45,799 bases of DNA from Jimgerdemannia flammicorona (GCA_003990765.1 RBNJ01000059.1:1-45799), one strand, 5' to 3'. Shown: positions 3,611 through 26,645, counted from the stretch's first letter. A program made the numbers and translations. The notes: generated by a model not told the origin, from the letters alone.

Positions 3611-5659
3611 TGTAAGAGAGTTACTTGTTAGAGTAACTATTACATAGTTCTGAAAGAGTTTTCTGGAAGTTCTGGATATTCTGGAAGACTGTTTTCTTAA
3701 GGTCAAGATTAATTTTGTATGGAGTATATCCTCTACACTTATTGATTTCAAAATTGAGTTGATGTCTCAACCAAAGTCCCTTTTCAGACTAGTTCTGAAT
3801 ATTCAGAATTTTCTATATTTTAGGAAGTTTGAGAAACTAAGACTAGCTTAGTTAAATTAGTGTATTGCTGTAGACAATACTTAATTAGGAAACTTCATAA
3901 TAGAGTTAGGAGTGGGACCTAATAGAGAATGAATTTACTTAAGAGTGAGTTGTGGGTTATTAAATAGGTTTATTTGCTATTTATGATATTACTATACTAG
4001 GAGTAGTTGTGTAAAGGAGTATTGTGGAGAAGTATTCAGAAATGTTCTTATATATTTGAGTTTGAGATTTTGAGGTCTAAGAGAGGGGGTATTTATACTA
4101 GTGAGGAGCTATCTGGACTATGCTAAATATGGGTGTAGCACTTAATACATATCTTGCTGAGTCAGAATATAGTTACATAGTACAAGTATGATCTGATATA
4201 TCAAGAGATCATCTGATTGCTGAGTTAGTTCACAGTCATATTATATAAGGCTAATTTAACTATACTATGACTACCAAGCTATCTATAGATTTAAATGCTA
4301 TCTGGATAGTCTTGGATGACATTACTATTGATGACATCATCTCTAATGAAGTAGTCATCTAGGAAGAGTTGTTCATGGATTAACTCTCTTTATTCACTGA
4401 GGTAATAATACATTAGGACTTCATCACTATCCCATAGAATAGTATCATCAGTCTTGTATGCTGAGTAAGGTATTGGTGGGCAAAAGAGGGATACATTATC
4501 TTCACTTTCATCAGATTCACTATCTGTATACCTTCTATAAGTTATGGTACTATGAGTTGCTGGGTTGTAGTAAGCTGATGGCTGTAGTTCATGTTACTTG
4601 TACTCAGGTGGTAGAGTTGTTGATTCGATCTCGAGAGTTGTCTGAAGGTATAGATTGTGTTCTCTGGTTTCTTCATTATAGTTAAAGTAATCAGGGGTAA
4701 ATACAGGTTAGTATTCATACCAGTGATCATTGTCTCAATAAGTTTTATAAGTAGTTATGAACTGTTGTAAGTTCATCAGTAAGGTTGGTGGTATAATCAG
4801 AGTTGGCAGGGATCCTTGGCTTGAGGTCATATCAGCATCAGAGGGATTATTATCTTCTGCTTCATCTTTATCAAATCAGATTATATTATAGATATCCTTT
4901 ATAGTATATCTGACTTGAGGCATTTGCAAGATATAGTTATCAGAGTATAGAAAGATTCTGTTTATAGTCTCAACATACTCAAGGTACTTGTAGTTGAGTT
5001 CTTATATTATGTCATCTATTTGGCTATAGGACAGAGTAGCAACCATTTTGGTAGTAGTAACTTGGAGATAGGGAATAACAGTGCTATACTCATAGAAGAG
5101 TTCTCAATATTTGTGGGCAATGAGTTTCTGGTATTGAGACATCTGGGTAATGTCTGTATCATGATGGTGTTCGACCATATCTTCCAGGAGGCAGCCAATC
5201 TAATAGTAGCTTAAGATTTGTCCAATTTAGTAGGCTTCACTAAGCATATTTAGGGTATTCCATTGGGCTTCCACAAAGTAGAGAGGTGCTAAGCTATAGA
5301 TGTTCATGAGGGGCAGAGGGGGTGTGGCTCAGTTGACAATGGCATTCTAAATATCAGCATGGATGTGGTTGTAGATCTCAGTGGTTATATTTGTATATAT
5401 TCAGGAGTTATAGTTATATATTTGATTTGTTTTAGTTCTCCATTTTTATATGTCTCAGTACTTAGTATATATGTATTTGGTCCTGATTGGTAAGATCCCA
5501 TTTATATAAATCTTATATTCTGTGACTTCATATTGACTTAGCTTTGTATGCTGTGACTTGGTTTGATTTTCCAGATTTGTTCAGAGGTCACCTGTGATTT
5601 CAGTAGCTTGTTCTGAGGATGATGTGTGATTTTGGTGGCTTAGAGGTTGTGTGCTTACA
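3611..5659 (-). repeat. Element A 3' LTR (2049 bp)
   Basis: Begins tgtaag, ends cttaca; colinear with 12188-14250; adjacent purine tract on the minus strand. Confidence 0.95.
4291..5388 (-). pseudogene. LTR(U3)-embedded accessory ORF, ~365 codons, copy in 3' LTR of A
   Basis: One frame from ATA (ATG in the other LTR) to TAA 4291-4293; most internal stops are sense codons in the other LTR copy; contains QIGQI.SYY.IGCLLE and an acidic C-terminal half. Confidence 0.7.
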
Positions 5660-5673
5660 ACTCTCCCCTTTTT
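5660..5673 (-). promoter_or_regulatory. Polypurine tract of element A
   Basis: Minus strand reads AAAAAGGGGAGAGT immediately before TGTAAG of the 3' LTR. Confidence 0.85.
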
Positions 5674-6109
5674 AGCTTTCAATATCCTCATTGGGGTCTT
5701 CTAATTTATTCTAGTATTGTTACACCATTTGGAAGGTCAAAAGTCTAGTAAAGTCCATTTTTTTCAGAAAGTGGCATGCTTGTAGTATAGTTGCCTAATG
5801 TATTAGATTCATATATTAAAGAGTCATATGTTCAATACTGTGTACTGGAAGTAATTCTGATATCATTCACTGCTGGAGAATTTCCCCTAAAAAATCTTCT
5901 TAAATGTCTGTGCCTTATTTCCCACCAGTGATATGAGGAGAATAGGCTTACTTTCAGTTTTGCTATTTTTCCAGAGAGTCAGTATTCTTTTGTCTTGACT
6001 TGCTAAGTTCTTGATTTTGTTCATGATAATTATAATGTTTGGGAGAGTAATATATAGTATATACTGATAGATGTAGAATATTTGGTTTTAGTTGTTCAAG
6101 GAATCATAT

Positions 6110-6262
6110 TCCTGAACTAAGTCAGTAACATTCTGGAGATTGGTCTTAGGTTCCCAGATTGTATTATAGGTTGGGTAACCTTTCCATTTGACAAGGTACT
6201 CAGAGTAGTTCTTGTGGCCATGTTTGTTGAGGATTTGTTCAACTTTGTACTCTTCTTAGTCA
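6110..6262 (-). pseudogene. Integrase C-terminal chromodomain of A
   Basis: EEYKVEQILNKHGHKNYSEYLVKWKGYPTYNTIWEPKTNL, a chromodomain signature. Confidence 0.9.
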
Positions 6263-9200
6263 TTGATAATGACAGATACAGATGGTTCTGTGGTTTAGTT
6301 TGGGAATAACTCATCATTGTTTTCATTATATTACTTGAGATATTGGATATTAAAGACTGAGTGAATCCTAATGGTATCTGATAGTACTAATTTATAGGAA
6401 GTAGAAGAGACTTGTACAATAACTTCAAATGGTCCAATAAACTTACTGTTCAGTTTTGTAGATGGTCTGTACTTGAGGTTGTCAACTTAGTATCCTCAGA
6501 TGTCTAGTAAGACTTTTTCTCCAATATCAAAAGTCTCTTCTCAGCAGTATTGGTTGACATACTGTGACTGTTATTCTTGAGCTTATGATAAATTCTCAAT
6601 TACAATCTGGCTTAGATTGCATATTCAGAACAGAAATTCTTCAACTGCTTCAACTGTAGAGAATTCATCAGTAGTTTGGATAAGTATCAGAGAGGTGTTT
6701 GGATTTTGTCCAGTATTGGTGAAGAATGGGGTCATTCCAAGAGAGACTTGCTTGCTATTATTATAGGCAAACTCAATTGTAGTAAGGTGTTCATGCCAAT
6801 TATCTTGTCTGTAGAAAATATAGTTCCTTAGCATTTGTTCCAGAGTTTGGTTCATTCTTTCAGTTTGGCCATCTATTTCAGAGTGAAAGGCTGTAGATAG
6901 TGCAAGTTTTGTTTCAAGATATATATGGAGAATCTTCCAAAAATAGCTGGTGAATTTTGGGTCTTGGTTACTAATAATAATCTTAAGAAGACCATGATAG
7001 TGAAATATGTTGTCAAACAAGAGTATAGCTATGTCTGGTACTATTGTGATAGTAGTAGTTGGTATGAAGTGAGCTTGTTTGCTGAGATAGTCCATGAAAA
7101 CAATAATTGCATCTTTTTTATTCTTAGTTTGGAGTAGTTATATAATAAAGTCTATAGAGATTTATTCCCAATTAGTAGATGGTACTAGGATGGAGTGAAG
7201 TAGGCCAGGTTTTGCTAATATTGAGAACTTGTTACATTGGCAGGCATCACTGGAAGTGATATAGATCTTTAGCTAATCTGCTATGTGGGGCCAATAGAAG
7301 TTTTGAGAGATAACTTTTATAGCATTTGTCAAATCCTAAATATCCAGCTGTAGGGGCATCATGACATTCGAATAGAATAGTCCTTTGGAGGTCTCAGTTG
7401 TTTAGAATATACAATCTATCCTTATAGTAGATTGCATTATTCTTCAGTTGGTATTGATGATACTGGGTATGTTTATCAGTATTGTCACTGCTTAGAATTT
7501 CTTAGAGTACTTGAGCTTCTTTATCATTAGCATATACTGTAATAATTTATTCTATGATAGAGTTTGTAACCAAGATGAGAGTTTGGATAACTTCTTTAAT
7601 TAGTGGTCTGGAGATTGTATTGGTAATAACATTTTTCTTACCAGAGTGATGCTGGATTTCATAGTCAAAGTTGGTGAGAACTTTCATCCATCTGGCTTGT
7701 TTTTGGGAAAGAGTAGCTTGGGTCTTGATGTTGACTAATGACTTGTGGTCAGTCAATATGGTGAAGTATGCTCTTTTTAGATATAGTTGCTATTTGATCA
7801 GAGTGTTCATGATGGCTAACATTTCCTTCTTATGAGTTATATAGTTGATTTCAGCATTATTGAACTTTCAAGAGTGATAGGCCACAGGGTGTCCTTCTTT
7901 ATAAGTATTGCTCCAAGGGCTAGGTCAGAAGTATCCATAGTAACTTCATATGGTAGGGCAGAATTTGCTGCTTGAAGTATTAGAGTAGTTATCAAGGCAT
8001 CTTTTAGTACTTGAAAGGCAGTATCTTGTTCAGATCCCCAATTTATAAGATTGTTGAAGTCTTTTTCTTATTTCATAGTCCAGGGCTGTTCTTCTTTCTT
8101 ACTGTACTTGATCATTTGGGTAAGGGCAGTAGCAATCTTGGTAAAGTTGGCAACAAATCATCTGTAATAGTTTGCTAATCCCAGGAATAATTGGAGATCT
8201 TTTAGCTTCTTTGGTCTGGGCCAATCCTTGATTGCAGAGATTTTGCTAGGGTTCACTTTGATTCCATTTGGTATGATAATATGTCCAAGGAATTGAATTT
8301 CTTTCAGGAGAAATTCATATTTGCTAAGTTTTGCAAAGAGTCAGTTTTCTCAGAGTTTTAGTAGTATTAGTTCAAGATATTCAAGATATTTCTCTAAGGT
8401 TTTGCTGAAGACTAGGATGTCATCAATATAGATAATAACAAATTTGTTTAGATATGGGTGCAGGATCATATTCATCAGGGTCTAGAAGATTGTAGGGGTA
8501 TTAGTTAAGCTAAAGAGTATAACCAGGAACTTGAAGTATCCATAGCAAGTTTGGAAGACTGTCTTGTAGATATGTATCTTCTTCTTTCATAGTAATTTGC
8601 CAGTAACTATTTTATAGGTCAAAAGAGCTCATAAATTATGGGTTGGTAAGTCTATCAAATATTTCATCAATTCTGGATAGTGGGCAACAGTTCTTAATAG
8701 TCTGTTCATTGAGGTTATAGTAATCAATGCACATTTATAGGTCTCCTCCTTTCTTCACAATGAAGAGGACTGGTGCAACATAGGGTGATACACTGGGTCT
8801 GATGAATCCTTGTTATAGGAGTTTATTGATTTCTTTCTTGAGTACATCAATTTCTCTCAGAGATATATAGTAGATTGACTTGAAGGCTGGCTTAGCATCT
8901 GGGATAGTCTTGATGGCATGATCTACTGCTTATTTAAGAGATAGGTCTTTTGGAAGTTTCTTTGGAAATATGTCTCAGAATTTCTAGAGTAGAGATCTAA
9001 CATGGCTGTCAACTTTGAAAAAGTCTTCTTCAGAGTTCTCGGGTTTTCCTTTGGATGGGTGGATGGAGATGGTAAAGAGAGAGCATTTCTTGGCCAATTT
9101 CTTGAGCTGTAGCTTATTGATATGGGTGATCTTTAGTCCAGAGTTACTAGAGCTGAGTGGGTCCTTTTTACCTTGCAGTTTGAAGTTGTGGCATCCTTTC

Positions 9201-9540
9201 TTAATGATCAGAGAATGATTTACCCAATTGATCATGGGGTTCTCTTATTTCAACTATAGGGTTCTAAGAATGATTTCATTGTCAGAGAGTAGTACAATAT
9301 GGAGGGTAATATGTACTCAGTAGTCACCAATTCAGAAGGGTAGATTGTGGACTTTCTTGCTAATGATATATGAGATTCTATCAGCTGTGGCAACTGCTTG
9401 AGTTTGTTGTACCAGAGAGGTGAAGACCTTGAGTCTATTGGCTGTTTCTTTATTGATGAAATTGCCTGAGGCACTACTGTCTATCATAATCTTGACAGGT
9501 GTTCAGTTGACAAAAGCTTGAAGTGTAAGCAGTTTGTCTA
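6263..9540 (-). pseudogene. pol: pol of A: protease, reverse transcriptase, RNase H, integrase (stops and frameshifts)
   Basis: IMIDSSASGNF (protease, ~9465-9500), YIDD (~8419-8430), TDHKSL..W...L..FDYEI.H..GKKN (RNase H), and integrase core ...STAFHSEIDGQTERMNQTLEQMLR (ORF 6625-7095). Confidence 0.92.
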
Positions 9541-9744
9541 ATCCAATGGTAGTGATTTCAGTTATAGGAGCTTTCCTTCTGTTAGTTCTTCTTTGAGCCA
9601 ATTTATTGACATACAAGAAGTAATCATCAATCATTCAGGAAGAGTACATTTCAATATCATGAGGGCATCAGCCACTTGATATATATCTATCTTCAATTTT
9701 CTTATAGAATTATTCTTCTTTATTTATGGTAGGTTGGGCTGAGG

Positions 9745-10160
9745 CCTTATTTGATGAATCAAATCCTTTAGATCCTCAGATAGTGGGTAGTAGTTCAGGG
9801 ACTTCCTTGACTATCAGAGTTGACTCAATTTTTTTGAATAGGATCTGGGTAATGCAGAAATCAATGGAAATCTTGAAGAGTATCCAACTATGGTTTCAGA
9901 TGAGGACAATAATTTCACCTGTATAATCTTTGTCAATGACTCCTTCTTCTACTGAGAGTCCTTTCAATACTAGACTGCTATGATAGCATATCCTTCCAAT
10001 ATGTCCTTCAGAGATTTGGATGCTAATTCCTATATAGACTTGCTTGACTTCTCAGTTGGAAACTGTAGCTTCTTCAGCTGCATACAGATCATATCCAGCT
10101 GCCTTTTGACTTCCTTTGGTTGGGGCCTTGGCAGTTTACCTTAACTTGACAAAGTCTAGT
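9745..10160 (-). pseudogene. dut: dUTPase domain of A, in frame directly after the gag zinc knuckle and upstream of protease
   Basis: KAPTKGSQKAAGYDLYAAE...GRIC..SSL..KGLSVEEGVIDKDYTGEII...GF.SS, i.e. the trimeric dUTPase motifs. Confidence 0.9.
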
Positions 10161-10224
10161 ATTCTAGTAGTCAGATTATTGAGGTGGTATAGAGTAGTAA
10201 CAGTTGCTCATATTGCTGTTTGGG

Positions 10225-12100
10225 GTTTTCAGTTAGGGCAGGTACTGGCTATGTGTCCTGTTTTTCAGCAATAGAAGTATGCTCTGCTTCTTCAAAGTTC
10301 ATTTCTTTCTCCTTCAGTGAGTTTCTTGAAGGTACTCAGCTGGGTGGGTTTATGATTTCTGAGTGTCTATGATGTAAATATAGAGGGAGCTCAAGATACT
10401 TCATACTTAGGTTCTTCTTTCTTAGTCCAAGTCTTTTCCTTGTTGTTGAATTGTCTTTGAGACAGAATTGGTCCAGCTGTTAGAATTCGCTTGACCATAG
10501 TCTTGATTTTTGCCAGGTACTATTGTTGGTGGTTGCAACTAACTGGACATCCTTGTTCTTGGATTTTTCTTGTAAGCCATTCAGATAGTGCATTGAATAG
10601 ATGGTCTGCTCTTGTATTATTTTGTACTTTATTATTGGCAATATATTCTAGGCCAATAGTGTTCAGGAGTGACTCAAGTTTTGTACAGAAGGGTTTGAAT
10701 TCTTTCTTACTATATATATTGAATTTGAGGTTATAGAGTTTTACTCAATATTCAGTAATCATGGTTTTGCTATGGTATTGAGCAATTATGAGTTGTTTTA
10801 GTCCAGGGGCTACAGGATGAGCTCTATATCCTGGGGCATTGTTTGCTACATTTTGAGCAACTACTACAAGTCAGATATCCCATATGAGGGGTTTTTTTAG
10901 GAAGAGTTCATCACTATTCTTTGGTAGGTCCTTGGAAGAATGTAACAACTTGGCAGATATAGACTGTAGTGGTAGCAAAGAGTTGTTCCAGAGTGTGGTC
11001 TTAATTGTTTGTCAGAAGATAGTCAGCAACTTGCTCATTTGTCCATTGGTTGGCTTCAAAGTTGATATCAACTATACTAATGAAGCTTTGGGCTTCTTGT
11101 GTAGTACTATTGAAGATAGATAGACTCAGATTTTTGATTGGTCAGGTCTGTTCAGCTAAGATAGTAATGGTTGTTGCCATTATTACTACCTGGGCTGTAA
11201 GGTCTAGAATCTGTTAATTTACCATATTGTTTGCTGGAGGCAATTAGACTGCTGGTAGTGATATTACTGATACTACTTGAGGTACTGGTACAGTGTGTGA
11301 GAGTGTTCTTTGAGTTTGTATAAGTTAATAGAGTAGTAGTTATGGGTCTGGAGTAAGGGCTCAATAGATAGCTATCTGTTGCTATATAGGTGTATTCTGT
11401 TCTGATAGAGGTATATCTCCTTCAGTAGTATATCTGAGATCAAATTTACTGAGATACTCCTCCTCCTCTTTGGCTTGGTTTCTATATAGTTGGGTTTGCT
11501 CAGTGTCAAAGTAGATAGAATCAGTTGTATATCTGATTTCAGAAGGACTTAATTCAAAGTCAAGTTCTGGTTTGGTATTGGTTTCAGGTTCAGATAGAGC
11601 TGTAGCAGGACCTGCTTCTAGTTCAGGGTCAGGTTGTTGATGAAAGATTTCTCTTACTTCTTTCTTAAGAATATAGCAGGCCTTACTGTTCTGAAATTGG
11701 TAGTATAATGCAGTCTTGGTCCTAGTATGGTGAAAGTCAGTAGAGTTGAGCCACTTGGCTATAGAGGCTTGGGCTTTATGAGAAACTAAGGCTAGAAAGA
11801 CTGCTGCTGGTTGTCCTAGGTCACTCAGATTTGTAGAGCTAACAAAACTCTTATTGAGAAGAGTAAAGAAGGCTTCTATAAGACCTTCTTTATCTTGACT
11901 TGTAGGGTGTAGGGTAAGGAGTTTGGTGAATAAGGTTTCACCTATCTGCTGATTTAATCAGAGTACTTCTTTCTTTGAATGAAGTTTGTCCCACTTGTTG
12001 CAGGTGTGGAGGTCAAATTGTCCTTGTACATCAGGTTCAATTCTCTCCAGATTGTCAGATGGTTCAGGATAAATTCCAGTTTAGAGGTTGGGTTTTATAT
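10225..12100 (-). pseudogene. gag: gag of A with C-terminal CCHC zinc knuckle
   Basis: (C)FYC(R)KTGHIASTCP at ~10230-10280; gag-like EAQSFISIVDINFEA segment; position between PBS and pol. The 5' limit is approximate. Confidence 0.75.
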
Positions 12101-12170
12101 CAACTTGTAGGAATTCTCAGAGAGGTTTGTAGCAGAGTGAGGAAGCATCTTGAAGCAGAATTGGATTGTA

Positions 12171-12184
12171 AACTACTGCTACTA
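12171..12184 (-). promoter_or_regulatory. Primer binding site of A, probably initiator tRNA-Met
   Basis: TAGTAGCAGTAGTT three bases inside the 5' LTR boundary, one G>A change from the TGGTAGCAG start of iMet-type PBS. Confidence 0.6.
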
Positions 12185-12187
12185 AGT

Positions 12188-14250
12188 TGTAAGAGGGTTA
12201 CTTATTAGAGTAACCATTATATAGTTCTGGAAGGATTTTCTGGAAGTTCTGGATATTCTGAAAGACTGTTTTCTTAAGGTCAAGATCAATTTTGTATAGA
12301 GTATATCCTCTATACTTATTGATTTTAAGATCAGATTAATGTCTCAACCAAAGTCCCTTTTTGAACTAGTTCTGGATGTTCAGGATTTTTCATATTTCAG
12401 GAAGTTTGAGAAACTAAGACCAGCTTAGTTGAATTGATGTATTGCTACAGACAATACCCAATTAGGAAATTTTGTGATAGAGTTAGGAGTGGGACCTAAC
12501 AGGATATAGATTTACTTAAGAGTGGGTTGTGGGTTATTAAATAGGTTTATTTGCTATTCATGATATTACTATACTAAAAGTAGTTATGTGAAGGAGTATT
12601 GTGGGGAAGTGTTCAGGAATGTTCTTGTATGTTCAAGTCTGAGATTCTGAGGTCTGAGAGAGGGGGTATTTATACTAGTAAGGGACTATCTGGGCTATAC
12701 TAAATATGGGTGTAGTATTTAATGTCTTACTGAGTCAGAATACAGTCATATAGTATAAGTATGATCTGATATATCAAGAGATCATCTGACTGCTAAGTCA
12801 GTTTATAGTCATATCATATAAGACTAATCTAACTATACTATAACTGCCAAGCTATCTATAGATTTAGATACTATCTGGGTAGTCTTTGATAATATTACTA
12901 TTAATGATATCATCTCTGATGAAGTAGTTATCTAGGAAGAGTTGTTTGCAGATTAACTCTCCTTGTTCACTGAGGTAATAATACATTGGGACTTTGTCAT
13001 CATCTCACAGGATAGCATCATCAGTCTCATATATTGGGTAAGGTATTGGTGGGCAAAAGAGGGGTACATCATCTTCACTTTCATCAGATTCATTGTCTGC
13101 ATATCTTCTATAAGTTATGGCACTATGAGTTACTGGGTTGTAGTAAGCTAGTAGCTGTGGTTCATGTTGCTTATACTTAGGTGGCAGAGTTGTTGGTTTG
13201 ATCTTGAGAGTTGTCTGGAGGTACAGGTTGTGTTCTCCAGTTTCTTTATTATAGTTGAAGTAATCAGGAGTAGATGTAGGTTGGTATTTGTACTAGTGGT
13301 TATTGTCCCAATAAGTTTCATAAGTGGTTATGAACTATTGTAAGTTCATCAGTAAGGTTAGTGGTGTGATCAGAGTTGGCAGAGATCCTTAGCTTGAGGT
13401 CATATCAGTATTAGAGAGATTATTGTCTTCTACTTCATCTTCATCAAATTGGATTATATTGTAGATATCCTTCATAGTATATCTGACTTGAGGCATTTGC
13501 AGAATATGGTTATTGGGGTGTAGAAAGGTTCTGTCTGTAGTCTCAACATACTCAAGATACTTGTAGTTGAGTTCTTGTATCATATCATCTATTTGGCCAT
13601 AGGACAGAGTAGCAACCATTTCAGCAGTAGTAACTTGGAGGCAGGGAATAACAGTGCTATAAGTTCTCAATGTTTGTAGGCAATGAGTTTCTAGTATTGA
13701 GATATCTGAGTAATATCTATATCATAATAGTATTTGACTATGTCTTTCAGGAGGCAATCAATCTAGTAGTAGCTTGAGATTTATCCGATTTGGTGGGCTT
13801 TACTAAGCATGTTCAGAGTATTCTATCAGGCTTCTATGAAGTAGAGAGATGCTAAGCTATGGATGTTCATGAGGGGTAGAGGAGATGTAGCTCGATTGAC
13901 AATGGCATTTCAAATATTAGTGCAGATACAATTATAGATCTTAGTGATCATATTTATATATGTTCAGGAGTTGTGGTTGTGTGTTTAGTTTGTTTTGGTT
14001 CTTCATTTTGATGTCTTGGTGTTTGGTATATGTATATGTATTTGGTCCTAATTGGTAAGATCTCATTTATATAAATCTTATATTCTGTAACTTCATATTG
14101 ACTCAGCTTTGTACACTGTGACTTCAGTTTAACTCAGTTTCATAATCTTGCAGGTGATTTTCCAGATTTGTTCAGAGGTCGCCTGTGATTTCAGTGGCTT
14201 GTTCTGAGGGTAATGTGTGATTTTGGTAGCTTAGAGGTTGTACACTTATA
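12188..14250 (-). repeat. Element A 5' LTR (2063 bp)
   Basis: Direct repeat of 3611-5659, followed by the PBS on the minus strand. Confidence 0.95.
12864..13951 (-). pseudogene. LTR(U3)-embedded accessory ORF, copy in 5' LTR of A
   Basis: ATG at 13951, TAA at 12864-12866; a small deletion near 13660 shifts the frame; ORF-track fragment 13389-13670 is part of it. Confidence 0.7.
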
Positions 14251-14480
14251 TTGAATATATCTAATTTTATTCTTATTACTATAAAATCACTCATTTATAT
14301 CTTCTACTTAAAAGTGTTTAGCAATAGTATCCATTCTTATCTTACCTATATCATGAATATTTATATATACTTTCAGACAAACTGAAGTTTATTAAAAGAA
14401 AAATATCCAATAGTTTTTGTGGTGAAAATTACTTTATAGTATGCAAGTATCTAATACTTTAAATAATATTATATGTATCT
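14251..14480 (-). pseudogene. Upstream part of the Sola-like transposase relic, on the far side of element A
   Basis: VCLKVYINIHDIGKIRMDTIAKHF...FYSNKNK resembles the VC...F..IHGIG..R...H....R.HGN motif found N-terminal in this family; it joins 3610 across the TSD of A. Confidence 0.55.
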
Positions 14481-14499: not shown

Positions 14500-14900
14500 A
14501 CCAGAATTGTTTAAAGTATTTCTCCATATCCAAAGTCTTCTGGGGTTACTCCTCAGAAATGGGCTAAGGCTGACTTGTCATCTTTGAATAACTTGTGCAC
14601 TCTTTTTGCAATTGTGATCTGAGTGTAGGAGAGCTGACATTCTCTGATCCAGTCTTCTTTTTCCATCTTCGGTCTTGAATTCAGTAGCTGTCCCAACTTG
14701 AAATATTCCTGGAACTCGGTTCAGTTCTGATAGACCTTGAAATGTAAGATTCATGACAAGTGTGTTTGCACTATACTCTGGATGCTATCAAAGAATTCTT
14801 CCATTGTTGGTAGCTCAGTGGAATACCACTATCTTTCAATGGCTTGCTGGACTGTGCTAGTAATTCTGAGGGTGGCAGTATTACTTTGTTGACTGGTCAT
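14500..14900 (-). pseudogene. ORF3 accessory protein of B (3'-truncated)
   Basis: ATG 14900: MTSQQSNTATLRITS...EEFFDSIQSIVQTHL...TEFQEYFKLGQLL...EDWIRECQLSYTQITIAKRVHKLF...ALAHF.GVTP; aligns with 28001-28462. Confidence 0.8.
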
Positions 14901-16073
14901 AATACTTCTTAAGTCAGTTTTGGTAGATGGTAGTGGAGATGATTGTATCTGAGAGTTTTTGTAGCCAAAAGGTGGTTCTTTTTATATCTTACACAAGATA
15001 AGGTCCTTCCCACTTGGGCTCCAGTTTTCATGACCATGAGGCTTCTACCATATTCTGATACACCAGGACTTTGTCTCCTATCTTGATAATCTCTAAGGGT
15101 TTGTGGGTTTTTTCCACATTCTTCTGTTATAGTGTTTGTGCCTTCATTATGTAATTCTCAGCCTTCTTCCTGATTTGGTGTAGTCTCCATATTTCTCCAT
15201 CCACATGTTTCCATATAGCATCTCCATTGGATGATAGGGTTTCTTGAGAACTTTCTTCTCCAAACAGCATTTCTCAAGGGGTAAAGTGGGTACTTTGTAA
15301 TCTGATATCTCAGAGAGCAGATAATGCTATTGGCAGATAGTGATTCCAGTTTTCATAGTTATTACAGATCTTGACAATAACATTCTTGAGGGTCTTGTTG
15401 GTCCTTTCTACTTGTCTGTTTTCTTGAGAGTGATAGGCTATAGTCTGAATGTGCTGGATCTTGTACTTCTTGTAGAGAACCTCAAAGAACTGGTTTATAA
15501 ATTCTATTCCTCTATCTGTAGTTACTTGCATTGGGGTCTTGAACTAGCAGATGATTTCTTTGTGGAAGAAATCAGCAATTGACTGTGCATTGGCTTCCTT
15601 AAGGGGTCCTGCTTCTATCCACTTTGTAAAAAGGTCTACAATGACAATGATATATTGGTTGCCAGTCAGGATCAAGAGTAGAGGGCTGATTACATCCATT
15701 GCTATGTGGGCAAATGGTACTAGTTCTATATGTGCTGATTCTGAGGCTTGGTTTTGTTGGTCTTATTTCTATTTCTAGCATTTGTTGCAGGTTTTGACAA
15801 ATTGTCTGATATCTTTCTCCATTCCTGGCCACCATATCATTCTTCTTGCCTTGTCATATGTATTTATTCCTCTTAGATGGCCAAGTTCATGTACTGATTT
15901 CATTGCTTGCTCCTTCTTGTGTTCTAGTATGACTAGTAGTTTTCTTTTCTTCAGTGTTTATCTATCAGTTTCGAATTGTTGTTGATAATCATTTGCATCC
16001 ATTCTTCCAGATGTTGGGACATCTTTTGCTATCCCAGATATGTGATGATTCCATAGTAGAGCTCCTTATTCAT
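14881..16073 (-). pseudogene. Integrase of B encoded as a separate ORF
   Basis: Starts ATG 16073 (MNKELYYGII) overlapping the RNase H stop; core TDRGIEF.N...AYH.Q.N.QVERTNKTLK; C-terminal W.GPY motif. Confidence 0.85.
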
Positions 16074-19000
16074 AATTGATTTGTTGGTTGGAGGTGTTTT
16101 GAGGTATCCGTGAGAGAGCATCTGTATTGGAATTTGTTCTTCCAGGGCAGTATACAATGGTTACATCATAGGCTTGTAACTTCATTATCCATCTGGTGTA
16201 GATTTCTTTGGGTTGTCCAGTTATCAGTAGTCAGGTGAGAGCTGAGTAGTCCATCTGAATGGTGAAGTGTCTTCTAGCCAGATAGTAGTGGAACTTTTCT
16301 ACAGCCCAGATGACTGTGAGATATTCCAACTTATAGGATTCATATTCTTTTTTAGCTCCTCGGGTTCCACAGCTAAGGTATGCAATGACATACTCTTTTT
16401 TGTCTTTCTTTTGAGCTAGAACTACTCCTAGTCCTTGTACACTTGCATCTGTCTGAAGGATAAACTCTTGGGTCTGATTGGGTCATCTCAGGATGGGTGC
16501 CTGGGTCAGTCTGACCTTGAGTTCATCAAATGCTTTTTGTTGTCTACCAGTCCAGTTAAATTTAGTGTCCTTCTTATTGAGTTCATAGATTAGACCTGCA
16601 ATATTGAAGAATCCTCTGATAAATCTGCAATAGTAGGAGGTGAGTCCCATGAAGGCTTAGGCTTCTGTAACAGTGGTGGGCCTTGGGTATGCTGCTACTG
16701 CTTGTATCTTGAGAGGGTCTATGTACGTTCCATCTCGATTGATAACATGGCCAAGGTAGAAGATCTCGATTTCTGCAAATTTGCATTTCTTGAGCTTGAT
16801 ATACAGGCCATACTTTCTCAGTCTTTCCATTATCTGCCATATGTACTGCAGGTGTTCCTCAAGTGTCTTGCTGTAGATGATTACATCATCGACATAGACC
16901 ATCATCTATCTTCCCATGTTATAGTAGAAGATTTTATTCATTATTTGCTGAAAGCTTGCTGGTACATTATATATCCTGAATAGTATTCGTAGGTAGATAT
17001 AGGTTCCATCTGGGGTAATGAAGGCTGACTTTTCACTTGCCATCTCTGTGAGTCTGATTTAGTGGAATCCTGAGTATAAGTCCAAGGTACTGTAGTACTG
17101 TGCTTCATCTCCCAGTATTATAAGGATGTCACTGATGAGGGGCAGTGGTTGGCAATCCTTCTTGGTAACTGCATTGAGCTTTCTGTAGTTGATACAGAGT
17201 CTTGGGGCGAATTTTCCAGGGTTGCTTCCTTTTTTTGGGGCTAGTACAACTGGTGAAGACCAGGGGCTGCTGGCTTCTTTGATAATACCAGCTTCTTCCA
17301 TCTGCTTGATTTCTTCTCTGAGCCATTCTCAGTAGGCTGGTGGGACAGGTCTTGCCTTCTGGTAAATTGGTTCAGTGTCTCTGATATCTATCTCATGATA
17401 GTAGTGTGGAGTCTTTCCCTTGATATCCTTGAAATCTGTAGTGAGAACATCTTCAAATTCATGAAGTATTTTCTTGAGTTCCTCCTTGAGTGGAAATTCA
17501 TTTCCAATGGTATAATGGTGCTTGTTTGTAATTTCCTCCTTCTTATGCTCCAGTTCAGTGATCTTGGTACTAGTGAATACTCCTCTTCCTGTGGATCCAA
17601 ATCCTTTCTTTTCTCTTTTCATTTCCTCCAAATTCTTGACTTCTATGATCCTTGGTTGTAGGATTGGGAAGATCAACATCTGTGCCAATCAGTCCCTCTT
17701 CTTGACTAGGAATGGGATTGTAAGATTGTGATTCCTAGCAATGAGCAGGATTTCTCCAGTATAGTCAGAATCGATGACTCCTTCTTCAATTGTAATTTTG
17801 CTTCTGGCCAGACTGCTTCTTGCCTTGAGGATCCTGACATGATCCTTTGGGATAGTTATCTCTAGTCCAGTTGTAAGTAGGGTAGTTGTTTGGGGTTCTA
17901 GTACAGCTTCTTCTATTGTGGCAATGTCCATTCCAGCTGCATTTTCTGACTTGTATTCTGGCAAGACTGCATCAGGGTGGGTCCTTCAGATCTTGACCTT
18001 AATTTCTTCTTCATCATCACTATCCTCCAGAAGGGCTGGTGGTTCATTATCTTCCTCCTCCTTCTCTTCTCTGATCTGTTTTTTGAGAGCTTTCTGTCTT
18101 CTTTCCTGGTGGATTTTCTTGATTCTGATGGTGCACTGGTAGCAATCATTGACATGCTTCATACAGTACATCTTGATCTCATGAGAACAGACTCCTTGTA
18201 GTATATAGCCTTCTGCAATCTTCTTACACCATTCTTCTTTACTCATCTATCCAACTTTCTTTTTCAGAGTAGTTACCATATAAGCTTCCTCTTGCTTGCT
18301 CTCTTCTTCCTCCATGTCAGGCAAGACTCCTTTGTTGACATTAATGGGAATTCATATCTTCTGTCCCTGGTAGGTGATTTGTATCTTCTGGGCATTGAGA
18401 TCAATTACTGCCCTGGCTTGGTAAAGCCATTGATTGCTGATGAGGATGTCATAGTTGGTGGCATTGGTTACGATTACATCTACTGGGATGGTTGCTCCTC
18501 TAATCTTGATGGGGACTTCTCGAATCTTTCCCAGAGGGGTGGCTCTTGTACCATCTGCTGTGACAAAAACCAACTTGATTACTTCTTCAACTTCCCAGCC
18601 TAGGCAGTCTGCTGCTTTCTTGCTAAGGAGACATTCTTCTGCTCCAGTATTGATAATGGCTTTAAAGACTCTATCTTTGATTTGGCATGTTGCATAGGCA
18701 GAGGTTTTGCAATTGTCTTTACTTTCTTCTCCTAAGTCCTCTTGAATGTTATTGGCCTTAGTTATCTTCCATCCTTGCTCCTTGGTTGTTTCAGCAAGTC
18801 CAAACCTCATTTGTTGTCTGAATGTTGGGATTTCTGCAAGCTGACCAAAGATTGCATTGACCTTTTGTTGGCTAAGATCCTTGAAGATATCATACTTAAA
18901 AGTCTTGATCTTGCGAAGTTTCTTTTCTTTTTCTCCTTTACTGGCTGGAGTAGTTTCTCAGATAATATCTTAAACTGCTTGCTCCAGCTCCATATCTTAG

Positions 19001-20060
19001 TCCATCTCTTTGGCTTGGCTTTCAGTGACTATTTCCATCTGCTTTTCTACTGGGTTCTTCTTGGGTCTTCCTGGTGGTCTCTTGTAGGGTTCCTTGTGAA
19101 CATCCTTCTTGGTAGTCCAAGCAGAATAGGCCTCCCATTCTTCTTTATCAGAATCTCCAATTTCCTTGAAGGTAATTGTATTGGCCTGTTCCTTGTTTCA
19201 TGTAGTATTGCTTGGTTGAGCCTTGTGCTTAGTTTCACTCATACATTTATAGGAGTAGTGGCCTTCTTCTCCACAGGTATAGTAGGTATCTTTCTTCTTG
19301 TCTGAGGTGGCAACAAACTTCTGGACTGGGCAGTAATTTCTTTCTTGGATTTCTTTTACCATATCTCCCAGATGGGCAGTTATTTCAGTGAACCTTTTGG
19401 CAAGTTTCTCCATAGGGTCACTGTTCTTTTGCTACTCTGTAGTTTTTGGCTGAGGTGTGTTTTGATTGATCATTATAGTAGGGATCACACTGGTTGCTTT
19501 GGGTGTTTCAATTCTGACTCCTGTGACTCTTTCCATTGTATGGTCTTGTGGATGTCTGGCTATCCAATATTACTGAGCATAGGTGACCTTTTGTGGCAGG
19601 TCCAAGACTACTGGTGATGAATGGATGGCCATGGCTATCTCTGGGTGAACTCCTTTCATAAAGGTTGCTTCAGCTACTTGATCTCAGATAGCAGCAGCAT
19701 AATCTGCAAAGGTTATCTGATATCGAATTCTGGTATAGAATGTATTTGGATCCTCACTCATTCCTTGGCATATTGTGTTGAGCTGATCCTTCAAGGCTTA
19801 CTTGATCTCATCTGTGTAATATGTATTTCAGAGCCAGGTCTTCTGTGCTGTCAGTATAGCATCAGCATCATTTCCTGCATAGGTTATGGCTGTGAATGCT
19901 GCTTTGGTAGGACCTCGTAGGCTGAAGGGCATGAGGGCTACTTGCTGTGCTGCTATCAGGGTCCTTATAGCAGCATACTACTCAAAATCATCAATGAAGG
20001 TAATGATTGATTCATCTGAGGTATATATATGGAATACTAGTGGTCTTATATTTATTTTGT
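16066..20060 (-). pseudogene. gag-pol of B (gag, protease, dUTPase, RT, RNase H)
   Basis: Zinc knuckle TCGEEGHYSYKC (~19240-19290), AIINTGAEE protease, YVDD (~16885-16897), FILQTDAS RNase H; ends DALSRIP...YE* at 16066-16068. Confidence 0.92.
17590..17990 (-). pseudogene. dut: dUTPase domain of B, between protease and RT
   Basis: AAGMDI...ARSSLARSKI...GVIDSDYTGEI...AQMLI...KGFGSTG (ORFs 17689-17964 and 17329-17688). Confidence 0.92.
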
Positions 20061-20154
20061 CTGGGTATTGTGGTTCTTAGGTAGTGGCAGTTGTTTGTTG
20101 TTCAGCTTGAAAGTGAGGGATTTATCTTAAATCACTAGCCAATGGGTACCAAGT

Positions 20155-20620
20155 TGTAATGTAGCAGATGCTTACTCTTGAAAGTATGTCAGATTTCTGT
20201 ATTTTAAATACTTGATCTTCTCTGACTCCTTGGAGTCTTTGGGATGTAGGGGTGGATGAGTTCAAAGTGTATCTGCCTGCAGGCTTACTAGTTTCTTTGC
20301 TATCTCTTTGCTTTTGAACTATTTCAATCTAAGGTTTATTCACTCTAAGATACTGGGTTATTTATACAAGTTTTGCTAACTATAAGGTGGCTAAGTAATG
20401 ACTTATTTCACAAGTATTGAATCTTTTAACATCTGCTAAGATTTTGCTGATTGCAAAGATTCTAACATCTCCTAAATCTTTGCAAATGTTAAAGATTCTG
20501 CACTTTGCAGAATATGGCTGCTATTTATGAGGCTAAGCTATATTGGGAATCAGATTTAGGTACTGCAATCAAATGTCTAATTCTCTTATTTCATGTTACT
20601 AATTTGGATCAGCTATTATA
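20155..20620 (-). repeat. Element B 5' LTR (466 bp)
   Basis: Same TATA/poly(A) core and CATCTGCTACATTACA end as the LTRs of C. Confidence 0.85.
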
Positions 20621-21679
20621 ATATATTACAATATATATAATTAGTCCTCTATTTATAATATTGACTGATACTTAATATGTTATTATTATTGTAGATATTT
20701 TTACAAAATGAATAGAAGCAGGATTTCCCAAAAAAAACCAATATATAGTCAATTATTAATTTCTTCAATAGAGAAATTACTATTTAGAGAAGAATATTCT
20801 GAAAAAACCTTATTATCTAATTGAGATATAATATAAAAATAAGTAAATATCAAGATATAGAGATTGTACCAAATAAAGAAAGCTGAGAATTATATATATA
20901 ATCAAGATATAGATATTATAATGAAATAATATATATAGAGAAAATTCATAAGCTCTTAAAGATTATCATGATAGAAGGCAAAGTTTTAATATATTAAAAT
21001 ATAGTAAAAGCTTCATTATTATAAAACTAAAGCCCAAATAAAAAGGACCTTACTTTGTATAAAATATAAAAGAAACTATCTTTTAGCTATGGAAACTATT
21101 AGATACAATTATTTCTACTACTATGTATCTATCAAAACTGACTCAAGAAGTACAATAGCTAGCTAATGAAATACTGTTATAACTCTCAAGATTACTAGTA
21201 CTATCTAGTAGATCATAAGAATACAATAGTATTCTATTAAACTACTGACTATAGAGAAATATTTTGATAGTATTCAAAGTATTATACCAATCCATCTATT
21301 ACACATTTCACACTTTAGAGCCTATTAAAATTATACTAAGTTTCAAGAGTACTTCAAGCTAAAATAATTATTAAACAAGAAGAATATAATTAAAAAAGAT
21401 TAGATTACTGAGTGTCAAATATTTTACATCCAAATTTCTATTTAAGAATGATGAGCAAGCTCTGGCTCATTTCTGAAGAGTAGTTCTAAGAGATTTCAGA
21501 TAGATAAAAGACATTATTAAGAGAATATAATTGAGCAAATCATTAGTATAATAATATAAAACTAGTCAAAGCTTAGAAGTTTGAATAAAATGATTCAGAG
21601 AAGAGATTATTTATTTAGAAGAAAGTTATAACAGTTGATCTAAATTAAAAAGTATAATTAAGAGATAGATATTTAATTA
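20621..21679 (+). mobile_element. Element F: old relic of the B/C family (integrase 3' part, ORF3, PPT, start of 3' LTR at 21627)
   Basis: Decayed FTK.IEAG, KPK.KGPY and IEKYFDSIQSII..HL..ISHFRAY...KFQEYFKL align with B/C; TATAACAGTTGATCTAAATT matches the start of the B LTR. Confidence 0.8.
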
Positions 21680-22109
21680 TATTATGAATAAGTAAAGAAG
21701 AGTAAAGAAGAATATTGTTTATTACTCTAAATAGTATATATTTATATATTAGAATTAGTGATCTAATTAAGAGTAATATATATAGTTATATATAAGTTAT
21801 ATATAAGATACAAATTACTAAGATATAAATAATAAAATTTTAACACTTCTGCTCAATGAGATAATACATATATAAGTAGAAATAAAAGAATGTAAGAATA
21901 TAGATATATAATAAACTAAGTAATAATAGCTAATTGACTATAAATGAACTAAAAGAATATTATTTATATATACTTAAAATATAAGAAAATATAGTAAAAA
22001 TATAAGATATAGATAGATCTTATTAGTAAAAAAACTCAAATATAGAGAAAATAAAATAGACTAGTGAATAACTATAATATTTGAAAGTTACTTAGTCAGA
22101 TATTGATAT
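21680..22109 (-). mobile_element. Probable 3' UTR, PPT and short 3' LTR (~21680-21845) of the Copia relic
   Basis: Minus strand TTGAGCAGAAG-TGTTA resembles a Copia PPT/LTR start; contiguous with the Copia RNase H end across the ATAT TSD of C. Confidence 0.45.
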
Positions 22110-22565
22110 TGTAACAGTATAGCCAAATTAGAAAGAAGGAAATAGGGAATAGATACTTGATCACACCCATTCCCAAAGTAGTATAGTTTTATAGTTAGCA
22201 GTTACTGATTTCAACATTGTCTAAATTTCTAGACATTGTCCAAATCGAATACCCTGATTTAGTATAGCATTTTGACATTGTCTAAGTTTCTAGACATTGT
22301 CTAAATGACTCATAACTTAGCTGTATAACTCAGTAGCCATCTCATAGCTAGCAAACTTGTATAAATAACCCAGTATCTTTGAGTAAATAAACCTTAGATC
22401 GAAAGTGTTAGAAAAAGAACAAGTATACTGATAAAAGGACCTTTGGGATTACCTCTTTAAACACATTTGGCCTCAAGGAACTACTGACTCTGGGAGTCAA
22501 GAAGACAAGAATTCAAGATAAAGAAATCTGATATACTTGCCCATCTTAGTATCTGCTACATTACA
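22110..22565 (+). repeat. Element C 5' LTR
   Basis: Direct repeat of 28500-28955; differences are almost all transitions. Confidence 0.96.
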
Positions 22566-22664
22566 ACTTAGTGTCTATTAGCTAGTGATTCAAGATGAAT
22601 CCCTCACTTTCAAGCTAAACAACGAATAACTGCAACCAGAACCCACACAACACAATCAGACAGA

Positions 22665-25600
22665 ATGGATATGAGACCACCCATATTCTATGAATATACC
22701 TCCGATGAATCAATCATCACCTTTATTGATGATTTTGAGCAGTATACTGCTGTAAGAACCTTATTGGCAGCACAACAAGTAGCCCTACTCCCTGTGAGCC
22801 TCCGAGGCCCAGCAAGAACTGTGTTTACTGCAGCTAATGTACAAGGAGCTGATAATCCAGCAAGAATCCTAGCCTTCAAGACCTGGCTCCAGGTAATCTA
22901 CTATATAGATGAAATCAAACAAGTACTCAAAGATCAACTGAATACCATCTGCCAAGGAATATCAGAAGACCCAAACACATTCTACACAAGAATCTGACAC
23001 CAAATAGTCCTTGCTGACTATCCCGATGCAGTTCAAGACCAAGTGGCTGAGAATACCTTCATGAAAGGTATTCACCAAGAAATTGCTTTAGCCATTCGAT
23101 CTACCCCAACACCACTAGACCTGGGATAGAAAGTTACCTATACCCAAAGATACTGGACTGCCAGACACCCTCAAGGCCATACAATGGAAAGGATAACTGG
23201 AGTAAAAATCGAACAAGTACCAAGAATTACCAATACAGTCCCGGCTATCATAGTTAATCGAAATACACAACAACAACCACAAGGCCAAAGAAGGGTTGAC
23301 CCAATAGAGGAACTGACCAAGCAGTTTGCGGAAATGACAGCACACCTCAGTGATGTAGTCAAGGAATTCAAGAAGAAGTCAGTACAGAAGTTTGCTACTA
23401 CAAATGCAAGATGATCTATAACATACTACAACTGCGGAGAAGAAGGCCACTATGCCTCTGAATACATGACAGAAACCAAGTGAAAGGCCAATCTAAGCAA
23501 TGCAACCAGGAACTGCAAGCAGGCAAACACTATCACCTTCGAGGAGATTGGAGAATCTGAGGAGGAGAGGGAGGAATGGGAAGCTTACCCTGCCACCTTA
23601 AGCAAGAAGGATGTCTGATCCAGCCTCTACAAGAAACCAGTGGGCAGACCTCCTAAGAAGGCTCAGACACAAACAAGACAACCAGAAACAGTCATTGAAA
23701 AAGAAAACCAGCAGAGTGAAGCTGATCAAGATATGGAGCTGGAACAAGATGCTGAACTAGAGCGAGCAGTAGAAGATATTATTCGAAATACTACCCCATC
23801 AAGTGAAGGGAAGAAGGAGCAGAAACTGCGCAAGAGCAAGATCTTCAAGTATGACATCTTCAAGGATCTCAAGGACCAAAAGGTCAATGCAACCTTTGGC
23901 CAGCTGGCTGAAATCCCAACATTCAGACAACAAATGAGGATGGGAATCTCAGACATCAGCAAAGACCAAGGTTACAGAATAATTGAAGCCAACAATGCAC
24001 AAGAAGATTCAGATGAAGAGAGTGAAGATAACTAGAAAACATCAGTCTATGCTACCTGCCAGATCAAGAACCAGGTCTTTGAAGCCATCATTGATACAGG
24101 AGTAGGAGAATGTCTCATCACCAAGAAAGCAGTAGACCACCTAGGTTGGGAGATAGAAGAAGCTACCAAATTGGTGTTTGTCACAGCTGATGGGACATGA
24201 GCAACATCCTTGGGAAAAATTCGGGATGTACCAATCAAGTTTGGTGAAGCTACTATCCCTGTAGATGTTATTGTCACCAATACAACCAACTATGATATCC
24301 TCATTAGCAATCAATGGCTTCACAAAGCCAAGGCAATAATTGACCTCAGCGCACAGAAGATGCAGATTGTCTACCAGAGAAAGAAGATCAGAATTCCCAT
24401 CAATGTCCACAAAGGAGTCTGCCCTGAGATAGAGGAAGACTAAGAAGAAGAAGCCTATATGGTTACTATGAAGAAAGAAAAAGGTAAGCAATTGACAGAG
24501 GAAGAATGGTATACAAGAATCGCAGATGGTTATGCCCCACTAGGAAGGTGCCCCCATGGTGAAAGAATGTACTGTACCCAGCACCTGGATCGCTGCTACC
24601 CTTATATTATCGAGGTGAAAAAGATTACCAACAAGCCAAGGAAGAACCAGAAGGAACCAGAAGATGGACCACCAGAACTATTGGATGACAGCAATGATGA
24701 AGAAGACATCATAGTCAAGATACAAAGAATCTACCCTGATGCAGTCATGCCACAATACAAATTGGAAAATGCAGCTAGAATAGACCTATCTACAACAATA
24801 CACACAATACTCGAACCACAGACTACTACCATCCTAGGAATAGGAATCGAAGTAACTATTCCACCAAACCATATCAGAATCCTCAAGACAAGGAGTAGCC
24901 TGGCAAAAAGCAAAATATCTATAGAAGGAGGAGTCATCAACTCAGATTATACTGGAGAAATCCTTCTCCTTGCCAGGAACCACAACCCAACAATCCCATT
25001 TGAAGTAAGAAAGAAGGATCGGCTGGTGCAAATGCTCATCCTACCTGTCCTTAATCCAAGAATCAAGGAGGTCGCAAACATCAGACAGACTCAGTGAGGA
25101 AGAGCTGGATTTGGCTCTACAGGAAGAGGAGTCCTCGTAGCAACTAAGATTACTGAATTGGAGCACAAGAAGGAGGAAAGCCAAGACAAACACACCTATA
25201 CAATCAGAAGAAACTTTCCACTCAGAGAAGAATTGCAGAGCCTCTTGCATATATTCGAGGATGTACTGGCTACAGATTTCAAGGACATCAAGACCAAGAA
25301 ACCCTTGTATTATCACGATGTCAATACTGGAGATGCAAAGCCAATCTATCAGAAGGCCTGTCCCATTCCACCAGCATACAGAGAATGGCTCAAGACAGAG
25401 ATCAAGGAAATGGAGGAATCCAGTATCATTAAAGAAGCCAGCAGCCCTTAGTCCTCTCCCATTGTCCTTGCACCAAAGAAAGAAAGCCAACCAGGAGAAT
25501 TTGCACCAAGACTCTGCACAGATTATAGAAGACTCAACAAGGTCACAGAGAAGGACAGACAACCATTGCCCAACATTGGCGACATTCTTATCATACTGGG

Positions 25601-26645
25601 GAATGAAGCATGATTCTATACCACTCTTGATCTGTTCTCTGGATTCTACCAAATCAGCCTTATGTCTGAAGCCAGCAAAAGGTCAGTCTTCATCACCCCA
25701 GATGAAACTTACGTCTATCTCTGCATGCTCTTTGGAATGTGCAATACACCAGCAAGTTTCCAGTGAATGATGAATAGCATCTTCAGGAATGTTATGGAAA
25801 AATGGATGATGATATATATAGATGATGTGATTATCTTCAGCTGAACAGCCAAAGAACACTTGGACCACATTGAGGAAATCCTCAGAAGGCTTCGCAAACA
25901 TGGCCTCTATATCAAGTCCAGGAAATGCAAGTTTGGAGAAGAAGAAATCACATACCTTGGACACATCATCAACTGTGAAGGAATATATACAGACCCTACA
26001 AAGATCAAGGCAGTAGCAGCATACTCAGTACCTACCAGTATCACTGAAGCCCGAGCCTTCATGGGACTTACATCCTACTATAGAAGATTTATTAGAAGTT
26101 TCTCCCACATCGCCAGCCCTATCTATGATCTGTTCAGAAAAGAGATTAAGTTCCAGTGGACTCAGCAGCAGCAACTAGCCTTTGATGAGCTCAAGACCAG
26201 ATTGACCCAGGCCCCAATCCTGAGAAGACTTGACTGGACTCAAGAGTTTATTCTGCAGACAGATGCCAGTGTAATGGAACTTGGAGCTGTCCTTGTACAA
26301 AAGAAGAATGGTGCCAAATATGTGGTAGCTTATCTCAGCTGAGGTACCTGAGGAGCCGAGCAGTCCTATGAATCATACAAGTTGGAATGCCTTGCAGTTA
26401 TCAGGGCTGTAGAGAAGTTCTACTACTATCTGGCTGGCAGACACTTCACCATCTAGACAGATCATTTGGCACTCATCTGGTTGCTTACTACCAGTGAGCC
26501 CAAAGGAATCTATGCCCAATGGATCATGAAGCTGCAAGCATACGATGCCATGATCACCCACTACCCTGGAAAAACCAATGCCAATGCTGACGCCCTCTTA
26601 CAGATACTCCGAAGGACCCCACCCTCACAAAATCACCATGAATAG
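22665..26645 (+). pseudogene. gag-pol of C (gag, protease, dUTPase, RT, RNase H)
   Basis: ATG 22665; NCGEEGHYASE knuckle; IIDTGV protease; YIDD (~25815); FILQTDAS; ends NADAL...HHE* at 26643-26645. Confidence 0.93.
24710..25125 (+). pseudogene. dut: dUTPase domain of C
   Basis: AARIDL...RSSLAKSKISIEGGVINSDYTGEI...VQMLI...GFGSTG. Confidence 0.92.

Follow-up and report, generated by a model that had tools for sequence, protein, structure and literature searches.

Genes lying inside the long terminal repeat (LTR) are the hallmark of a few retroviruses. In mouse mammary tumour virus (MMTV) the superantigen gene sag is an open reading frame (ORF) in the U3 part of the LTR, and the foamy viruses possess tas and bet, accessory genes at the 3' end that extend into their long U3 and have a second, internal promoter at their service. 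Here we describe a fungal retrotransposon, element A, in which a sense-oriented ORF of 251 codons is found in both LTRs, in each case broken by stop codons of the kind left by repeat-induced point mutation (RIP). The element lies on the minus strand of a 45,799-nt sequence of Jimgerdemannia flammicorona (GCA_003990765.1, RBNJ01000059.1:1-45799), which was analysed in full; it is referred to below as the window and supplies all coordinates.

Among LTR retrotransposons, additional ORFs (aORFs), for example the env-like ones of plants, are known from internal positions, in the majority of cases after pol and before the 3' LTR, and the portion of the review text available to us has no passage that places one within an LTR (PMC7264820). 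The parts consulted of three further papers provide the other points of comparison. The brtn gene of the Botrytis element Boty is an antisense aORF (PMC8365987). The grass elements Retrosat2, RIRE3 and RIRE8 combine long LTRs with a fast-evolving orphan, ORF0 (PMC3485330). Fungal chromoviruses bearing a dUTPase include Tmt1 of Tuber, PosPlaTy3 of Postia and elements of Phanerochaete; a figure legend lists an 'additional ORF' of undefined role for some fungal elements, and in the sections available no LTR-located ORF is mentioned for the dUTPase chromoviruses (PMC2864245). A limited search of the open-access literature found no protein-coding ORF inside the LTR of any fungal LTR retrotransposon.

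An open reading frame in both LTRs

Comparison of the window with itself reveals a pair of direct repeats of about 2.05 kb (3610-5650 and 12187-14241) that are 84.6% identical. These are the LTRs bounding a minus-strand retrotransposon, element A, for which TG..CA ends, a polypurine tract (PPT) and a target-site duplication (TSD) are all present. Each LTR contains one copy of the ORF, in sense and on the same strand as gag-pol:

12188-14250, minus strand, 5' LTR of A, 2063 nt, TATAAG...CTTACA, its start being a RIP-changed TGTAAG
3611-5659, minus strand, 3' LTR of A, 2049 nt, TGTAAG...CTTACA
12864-13619, minus strand, LTR ORF in the 5' LTR, ATG with 251 codons and TAA, four internal RIP-type stops
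4291-5046, minus strand, LTR ORF in the 3' LTR, ATG with 251 codons and TAA, six internal RIP-type stops

The differences between the two LTRs are dominated by transitions, of which the alignment, counted with some 45 nt of flanking sequence at either end, contains 298 against 37 transversions; there are five indels. The C-to-T type differences lie in CpA context in 185 of 269 cases and in CpG context in just six. Such CpA-biased transitions are the signature of RIP, and the host is therefore a RIP-proficient fungus. On the pattern of these substitutions element A is a RIP-inactivated copy, and it is RIP that killed the gene in its LTRs.

None of the ten internal stops of the ORF is common to both copies: opposite each, the other copy has a glutamine or tryptophan codon, the pairing codon by codon being with CAA, CAG or TGG, as expected if two copies of a frame without stops undergo RIP independently. 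A first-pass annotation of the window had already reported the same sense frame in both LTRs with stops that are for the most part private to one of them, and the codon-by-codon comparison confirms it. Further, none of the five indels that distinguish the LTRs falls inside the 251 codons.

The damage can be partly undone by choosing C or G at each transition difference between the two copies, which we call the least-RIP state. In this state the ORF frame has no stop in 251 codons, the other five frames having between 6 and 33, and not one of 5000 shuffles produced a stop-free frame over the ORF. Across the whole LTR of A, the other frames in the same state are open for at most 128 codons. As controls, the LTR pairs of two neighbouring retrotransposons, C and B (see below), were given the same treatment; their longest open runs did not exceed 106 and 43 codons, respectively, so that the procedure alone does not make long ORFs. 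The sequence around the start codon, which in the 3' LTR copy reads CCAAAATGG, is a good context for initiation. Since the stops are private, indels are lacking within the ORF, the least-RIP frame is stop-free and no shuffle reproduces it, the LTR gene was almost certainly intact when A inserted. Comparing both LTRs of one RIP-damaged element can, in this way, recover a gene that neither copy shows alone.

An intact homologue

A 345-residue read-through translation of the LTR frame, compared with 5.8 billion protein clusters, found one match, P0003 (E 5.9e-83), an intact protein of 247 amino acids from a 998-nt ENA contig. P0003 aligns over its full length with the ORF in the 5' LTR (13619-12867, 60.2% identity, E 1.7e-96) and with that in the 3' LTR (5046-4294, 56.6% identity, E 4.8e-87), and has no other match in the window. 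The sequences start at the same methionine, end at the same ...YPDSI and are separated by just two gaps, each of two residues. Where the LTR copies have stops, P0003 has Q or W, in one case N, or a gap. The first-pass annotation had given the gene a length of about 365 codons; from the end-to-end match with P0003 the supported gene is instead of 251 codons. For these codons its proposal that the frame was intact at insertion is borne out, both by the stop-free least-RIP state and by the homologue.

The divergence of P0003 is substantial, with 170 of its 247 residues matching at least one window copy, so that at most 69% are shared. When the least-RIP ORF was allowed to drift neutrally to that identity, it acquired a mean of 4.5 stops and stayed stop-free in 0.95% of 2000 runs (P 0.0095). 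Given these low odds, together with gaps that are exclusively in frame and the conserved start and stop, the comparison argues for purifying selection on the LTR ORF.

Relatives beyond P0003 were sought in several ways. A homology search with P0003, yielding 81 candidates, left only P0003 itself, and phmmer found no relative except P0003 among 1.84 billion representatives. In the JGI metagenome contigs, protein patterns gave 217 matches, none of them confirmed, and an exact 22-nt stretch of the LTR gave no match; in IMG/VR, 124 pattern matches likewise included none that was confirmed. No Pfam family matches the LTR ORF protein at E-values up to 1. Because neither a Pfam family nor a relative other than P0003 among the 1.84 billion representatives was found, the LTR ORF is, by the measure of these collections, not a host gene family.

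The predicted product is an acidic protein of about 29 kDa. In P0003 the isoelectric point (pI) is 4.05, with 46 Asp and Glu against 10 Lys and Arg, and there are 23 Tyr, 24 Pro and no Cys. A profile search of the PDB found no relative (best E 0.81), and the ESM Atlas offered no usable feature match and structural template modelling (TM) scores of at most 0.30. The ESM Atlas model of the protein has a predicted local distance difference test (pLDDT) value of 0.39 and the AlphaFold2 model, built from a three-row alignment, a mean pLDDT of 30.8. Composition and models together indicate a very acidic protein, rich in Tyr and Pro and lacking Cys, which probably has no stable fold and would, we infer, bind its partners through short motifs.

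The C-terminal YPDSI is present in all three sequences (window 4294-4308 and 12867-12881; residues 243-247 of P0003). It resembles the YPXnL/I motifs bound by ALIX/PalA-type proteins.

Element A and the placement of the ORF in U3

The remaining landmarks of element A, with the promoter block that it shares with the neighbouring elements B and C, are as follows:

5661-5673, minus strand, polypurine tract AAAAAGGGGAGAG, 1 base upstream of the 3' LTR
12169-12186, minus strand, position of the primer-binding site (PBS), directly after the 5' LTR of A
14251-14255, minus strand, TSD, upstream copy, TTCAA
3606-3610, minus strand, TSD, downstream copy, ATCAA, 4/5 identical, with TCAA exact
5660-12187, minus strand, internal region of A, about 6.5 kb of RIP-riddled gag-pol, full of stops
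12661-12695, minus strand, core-promoter block CAGATAG...ACTAGTATAAATACCCC in the 5' LTR, common to the LTRs of B and C
4084-4118, minus strand, core-promoter block in the 3' LTR, its TATA 192 nt downstream of the ORF stop
12668-12676 and 4091-4099, minus strand, downstream TATA AGTATAAAT, in the conserved core-promoter block
12546-12551, minus strand, AATAAA in the 5' LTR, 123 nt downstream of the conserved TATA
3969-3974, minus strand, AATAAA in the 3' LTR, 123 nt downstream of the conserved TATA
~31540-31580 and ~40376-40416, core-promoter block in C
~22345-22385 and ~28735-28775, core-promoter block in B

The interior of A was translated through its stops, written as X, and searched against Pfam. 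On the minus strand the domains come in the order Asp protease, reverse transcriptase (RVT_1, ~8553-8275), RNase H, the integrase C-terminus SH3_Tf2-1 and chromodomain (Chromo, ~6249-6103, E 2.9e-11), and there is a dUTPase at ~10132-9752 (E 1.8e-23). A CCHC-type knuckle can be recognised by eye; for the integrase core of this RIP-damaged element no Pfam match passes E 0.001. A scan for the tRNA primer of A found no tRNA genes in the window. The LTR hallmarks and the minus-strand pol domains, including the chromodomain, class A as a dUTPase-carrying chromovirus, that is, a Ty3/gypsy element with a chromodomain. The earlier description of A as a chromovirus with LTRs of about 2 kb is in full agreement with the LTR pair and the Pfam domains.

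The position of the ORF relative to the transcription signals of the LTR can be judged from a comparison with B and C. A block CAGATAG...ACT(A/T)GTATAAAT.ACCC, containing the downstream TATA, recurs in the LTRs of both (blastn E 4e-4, and alignment). Its TATA stands 1562 nt into the LTR of A, as against 221 nt for that of C and about 250 nt for that of B. The conserved TATA block is the probable canonical promoter at the junction of U3 and R, the boundary between the two in A being placed from the TATA and AATAAA. On that placement the U3 of A is expanded by about 1.3 kb compared with B and C, and it is the expansion that holds the ORF. Because it comes after the PPT (5673-5661) and stops 192 nt before a TATA block conserved across three LTR families, the ORF lies in U3. 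Reverse transcription would therefore place a copy in each of the two LTRs, and a solo LTR would possess one as well. The first-pass annotation had also set the gene upstream of a second TATA and AATAAA, and had likened it to U3-encoded retroviral genes such as MMTV sag, a parallel that is fair as far as position goes.

The block is common to three LTR families that are otherwise unalignable, and may be a conserved promoter module of these elements.

Further copies

Additional members of the A family are visible in run X1, a set of DNA contigs labelled as soil metagenome. The exact-word share of X1 with the LTR is 0.05. At 80% likeness over 3400-12186, the 3' LTR and the interior are covered in every one of 30 bins by 4813 contig pieces, which divide among the identity bands as 265, 930, 2267 and 1351. 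Compared with the window they show a bias in their differences, with 320 A>G and 196 T>C against 153 G>A and 93 C>T, and many of the A relatives there are therefore less affected by RIP. Pieces at 4535-4740 and 4733-4893 lie inside the ORF. The ORF is carried by both LTRs of the window element, and its region is covered by X1 contigs.

The longest record of X1 is of 135 kb, and an organism rich in the A family seems to be dominant or well represented in that run.

Expression, role and alternative explanations

We consider it reasonably probable that the ORF represents an accessory gene borne by the element in its U3 and killed here by RIP. The full-length RNA of an active element extends between the R regions of the 5' and 3' LTRs, and the ORF would be its 3'-terminal cistron. 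We suggest that a subgenomic message, produced by splicing or by initiation within U3, would serve for its expression, and that its protein may have been a protein-binding accessory factor of the element. The proposal builds on the position of the gene, its intactness at insertion, its intact but diverged homologue and its destruction by RIP, all of which emerge directly from the sequence comparisons above. Some considerations count against it. The sequence might have been captured into U3 without being of any use to the element. The lack of a recognisable domain, along with the low pLDDT, makes function a matter of conjecture. The homologue is a single one, compared at the protein level only, and the figure of 0.0095 for a stop-free frame under neutral drift is subject to ascertainment bias, since protein databases return open relatives only.

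The first of these considerations can be framed as an explanation in its own right: the ORF would be a passenger, a captured piece of some other mobile element or of a host gene specific to the lineage, devoid of any role for the element and open because its capture was recent. U3 is the most plastic part of an LTR, that of A being some 1.3 kb longer than those of B and C, and an orphan protein without a domain is what such a capture might leave. Transduced genes in LTR elements are, moreover, usually sense-oriented, according to the part of the review available to us (PMC7264820). We nevertheless regard a passenger as somewhat unlikely. The search of 1.84 billion representatives turned up no relative among host genes. 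The ORF is complete, with the start and stop of a homologue that shares no more than 69% of its residues, a state in which freedom from stops is improbable under neutrality (P ~0.01), and X1 contains further copies of the ORF region.

Among the ways in which an accessory gene could be expressed, one would make the LTR a self-contained cassette, in which a promoter in the 5' part of U3 would drive the 251-codon acidic protein and the transcript would end at the poly(A) signal of the same LTR, so that every LTR, solo LTRs among them, would express it. This is unlikely on the present evidence. Were it true, a retrotransposon would possess an equivalent of MMTV sag or foamy-virus tas, whose protein might act on host genome defence or particle trafficking.

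The first-pass annotation went further, proposing a gene of about 365 codons with a TATA box of its own (14076-14065 and 5511-5500) and making each LTR, solo LTRs included, an autonomous two-promoter unit. The motif in question is the following:

14065-14076, minus strand, upstream TATA-like ATTTATATAAAT in the 5' LTR, some 175 nt from the start of the LTR, with the ATG 446 nt further on
5500-5511, minus strand, upstream TATA-like ATTTATATAAAT in the 3' LTR, 454 nt before the ATG

The signals themselves are where they were said to be. TATAWAW matches eight and six times in the two LTR copies, and the upstream and downstream motifs are the only two places common to both; AATAAA matches twice in each copy, with a single common place. 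A transcript begun at the upstream motif would, in addition, meet the LTR's own AATAAA. TATA-like strings, however, come easily in the AT-rich DNA that RIP makes, and, unlike the downstream TATA, this one aligns with nothing comparable in B and C. Between it and the supported ATG there are ten other ATGs in the 3' LTR and six in the 5' LTR, five of them at the same aligned place.

The longer frame fares no better. In the least-RIP state 5388-4291 retains three stops (TAG at 5202, TGA at 5106 and the terminal TAA) and has an open run of 270 codons, the other frames having 8-41 stops. The first two of these stops stand in the upstream extension, 5388-5047, and are common to both copies, and the same extension is shifted out of frame by a 10-nt deletion in the 5' LTR copy, opposite 5098-5089. 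P0003 offers no counterpart to the extension, starting at the methionine aligned to 5046 and 13619 and no further upstream. The shared stops had been described as fitting decay of CGA or CGG; TAG and TGA are equally reachable by RIP from TGG or CAG. Since RIP could have made both, the extension may conceivably once have been coding, yet nothing supports this. A longer gene with its own TATA is, on balance, improbable.

A different arrangement would put the ORF not in U3 but in R-U5, with transcription starting 18 nt before the ATG, self-priming of the Tf1 type, and the ORF as first cistron of the genomic RNA. It draws on a complementarity, with transitions tolerated, between 12186-12169 and both 13637-13620 and 5064-5047, the 18 nt that precede the ATG. 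Exact complementarity is confined to 11 of the 18 positions, and a purine/pyrimidine run of this length with the LTR is attained by 141 of 6505 22-mers of the internal region (2.2%). From this stretch it is about 970 nt downstream to the TATA block conserved in three families. An analogous complementarity in C, at 13 of 14 positions, is about 325 nt past the transcription start, which is expected some 30 nt beyond the conserved TATA, and so not at the 5' end of the RNA. An R-U5 location must be judged very improbable. Self-priming in A was itself dropped as a candidate, the match being probably due to chance at a background of 2.2% and in conflict with the conserved TATA block.

That there is no gene at all, the frame being open by chance or through the choice of C or G at transitions, is scarcely credible: among the 366 codons of the raw 3' LTR frame (5388-4291) there are 12 stops where other frames have 17-52, a count matched in the best frame of 2.15% of mononucleotide shuffles and hence a modest signal, suggestive only, but the independent intact homologue (E 5.9e-83), the stop-free least-RIP frame set beside its five alternatives and the 5000 shuffles, and the two control LTR pairs without a long open frame all speak against it.

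Neighbouring elements

Outside A, the window is taken up by more chromoviruses in a nested array, with these principal features:

22109-22566 and 28499-28956, LTRs of element B, 458 nt, 94% identical, differing by 25 transitions to 1
31343-32552 and 40143-41391, LTRs of element C, about 1.25 kb, 92% identical, differing by 65 transitions to 1
24444-25097, plus strand, dUTPase of B, Pfam E 2.9e-17
35859-36950, plus strand, dUTPase of C, Pfam E 2.5e-27

A relative of B that lacks LTRs lies in inverted orientation, 14542-20393 matching 22334-28359 at 70-76% identity. In all three chromovirus families of the window the dUTPase is found upstream of the protease. The literature has this from Tmt1 of Tuber and from certain basidiomycete elements (PMC2864245).

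Two features of C deserve mention. Positions 31920-31933 in its LTR are complementary at 13 of 14 positions to 32559-32572, in the expected PBS region, and could form a stem between U5 and leader or be part of a self-priming device. Between integrase and 3' LTR, a frame of 197 codons is open at 39510-40103 on the plus strand; it matches no Pfam family, resembles nothing else in the window and could be either an aORF of the internal type or an artefact of reading out of frame.

Between the elements there are blocks of 16-31% G+C (2001-4000, 20001-22000, 29001-31000 and 41001-45000), which are presumably older repeats more thoroughly altered by RIP. Internal repeats are present at 41854-44611.

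Comparison with known systems

A conserved U3 gene in a fungal chromovirus would be duplicated at each insertion and would persist wherever a solo LTR is left, so that the element or its host would have a dispersed multi-copy gene. With the window copy dead and a single intact relative, its value is limited for now, and the interest lies in the family.

In its layout the ORF of A can be compared with MMTV sag, both being coding ORFs in sense within U3, present in both LTRs and in a 3'-terminal position on the genomic RNA. The likeness does not extend to the hosts or to the proteins. Sag is a membrane glycoprotein with an immune function, encoded by a vertebrate betaretrovirus, whereas the A ORF is fungal and its product acidic and predicted to be unfolded. 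No relation to Sag is indicated by Pfam (E up to 1) or by the PDB search (best E 0.81), and the A protein, with a pI of 4.05, is Cys-free. For a two-promoter layout the nearest precedent is that of foamy-virus tas and bet. There, in contrast to what was proposed for A, the second promoter is in env rather than in the LTR, and the proteins are unrelated to that of the A ORF.

Among retrotransposons, the ORF of A resembles the aORFs, which lack relatives outside transposons, in being an orphan borne by an LTR retrotransposon, P0003 being the one relative found among 1.84 billion representatives; it differs in that they occupy the internal region and it lies beyond the PPT, inside the LTR (PMC7264820, in the part available). 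The brtn gene of Boty, as described in the sections to hand, is antisense, in contrast to the A ORF, which is on the same strand as gag-pol. The ORF0 of Retrosat2 is again an extra orphan accompanied by unusually long LTRs, but it is internal, upstream of gag-pol, in plant elements that are not chromoviruses (PMC3485330, as far as available). In its Gag-pol, with dUTPase and chromodomain, A is like the fungal dUTPase chromoviruses, so far as the consulted part of that work describes them (PMC2864245). On these comparisons, the ORF of element A can be classed as an aORF displaced into U3.

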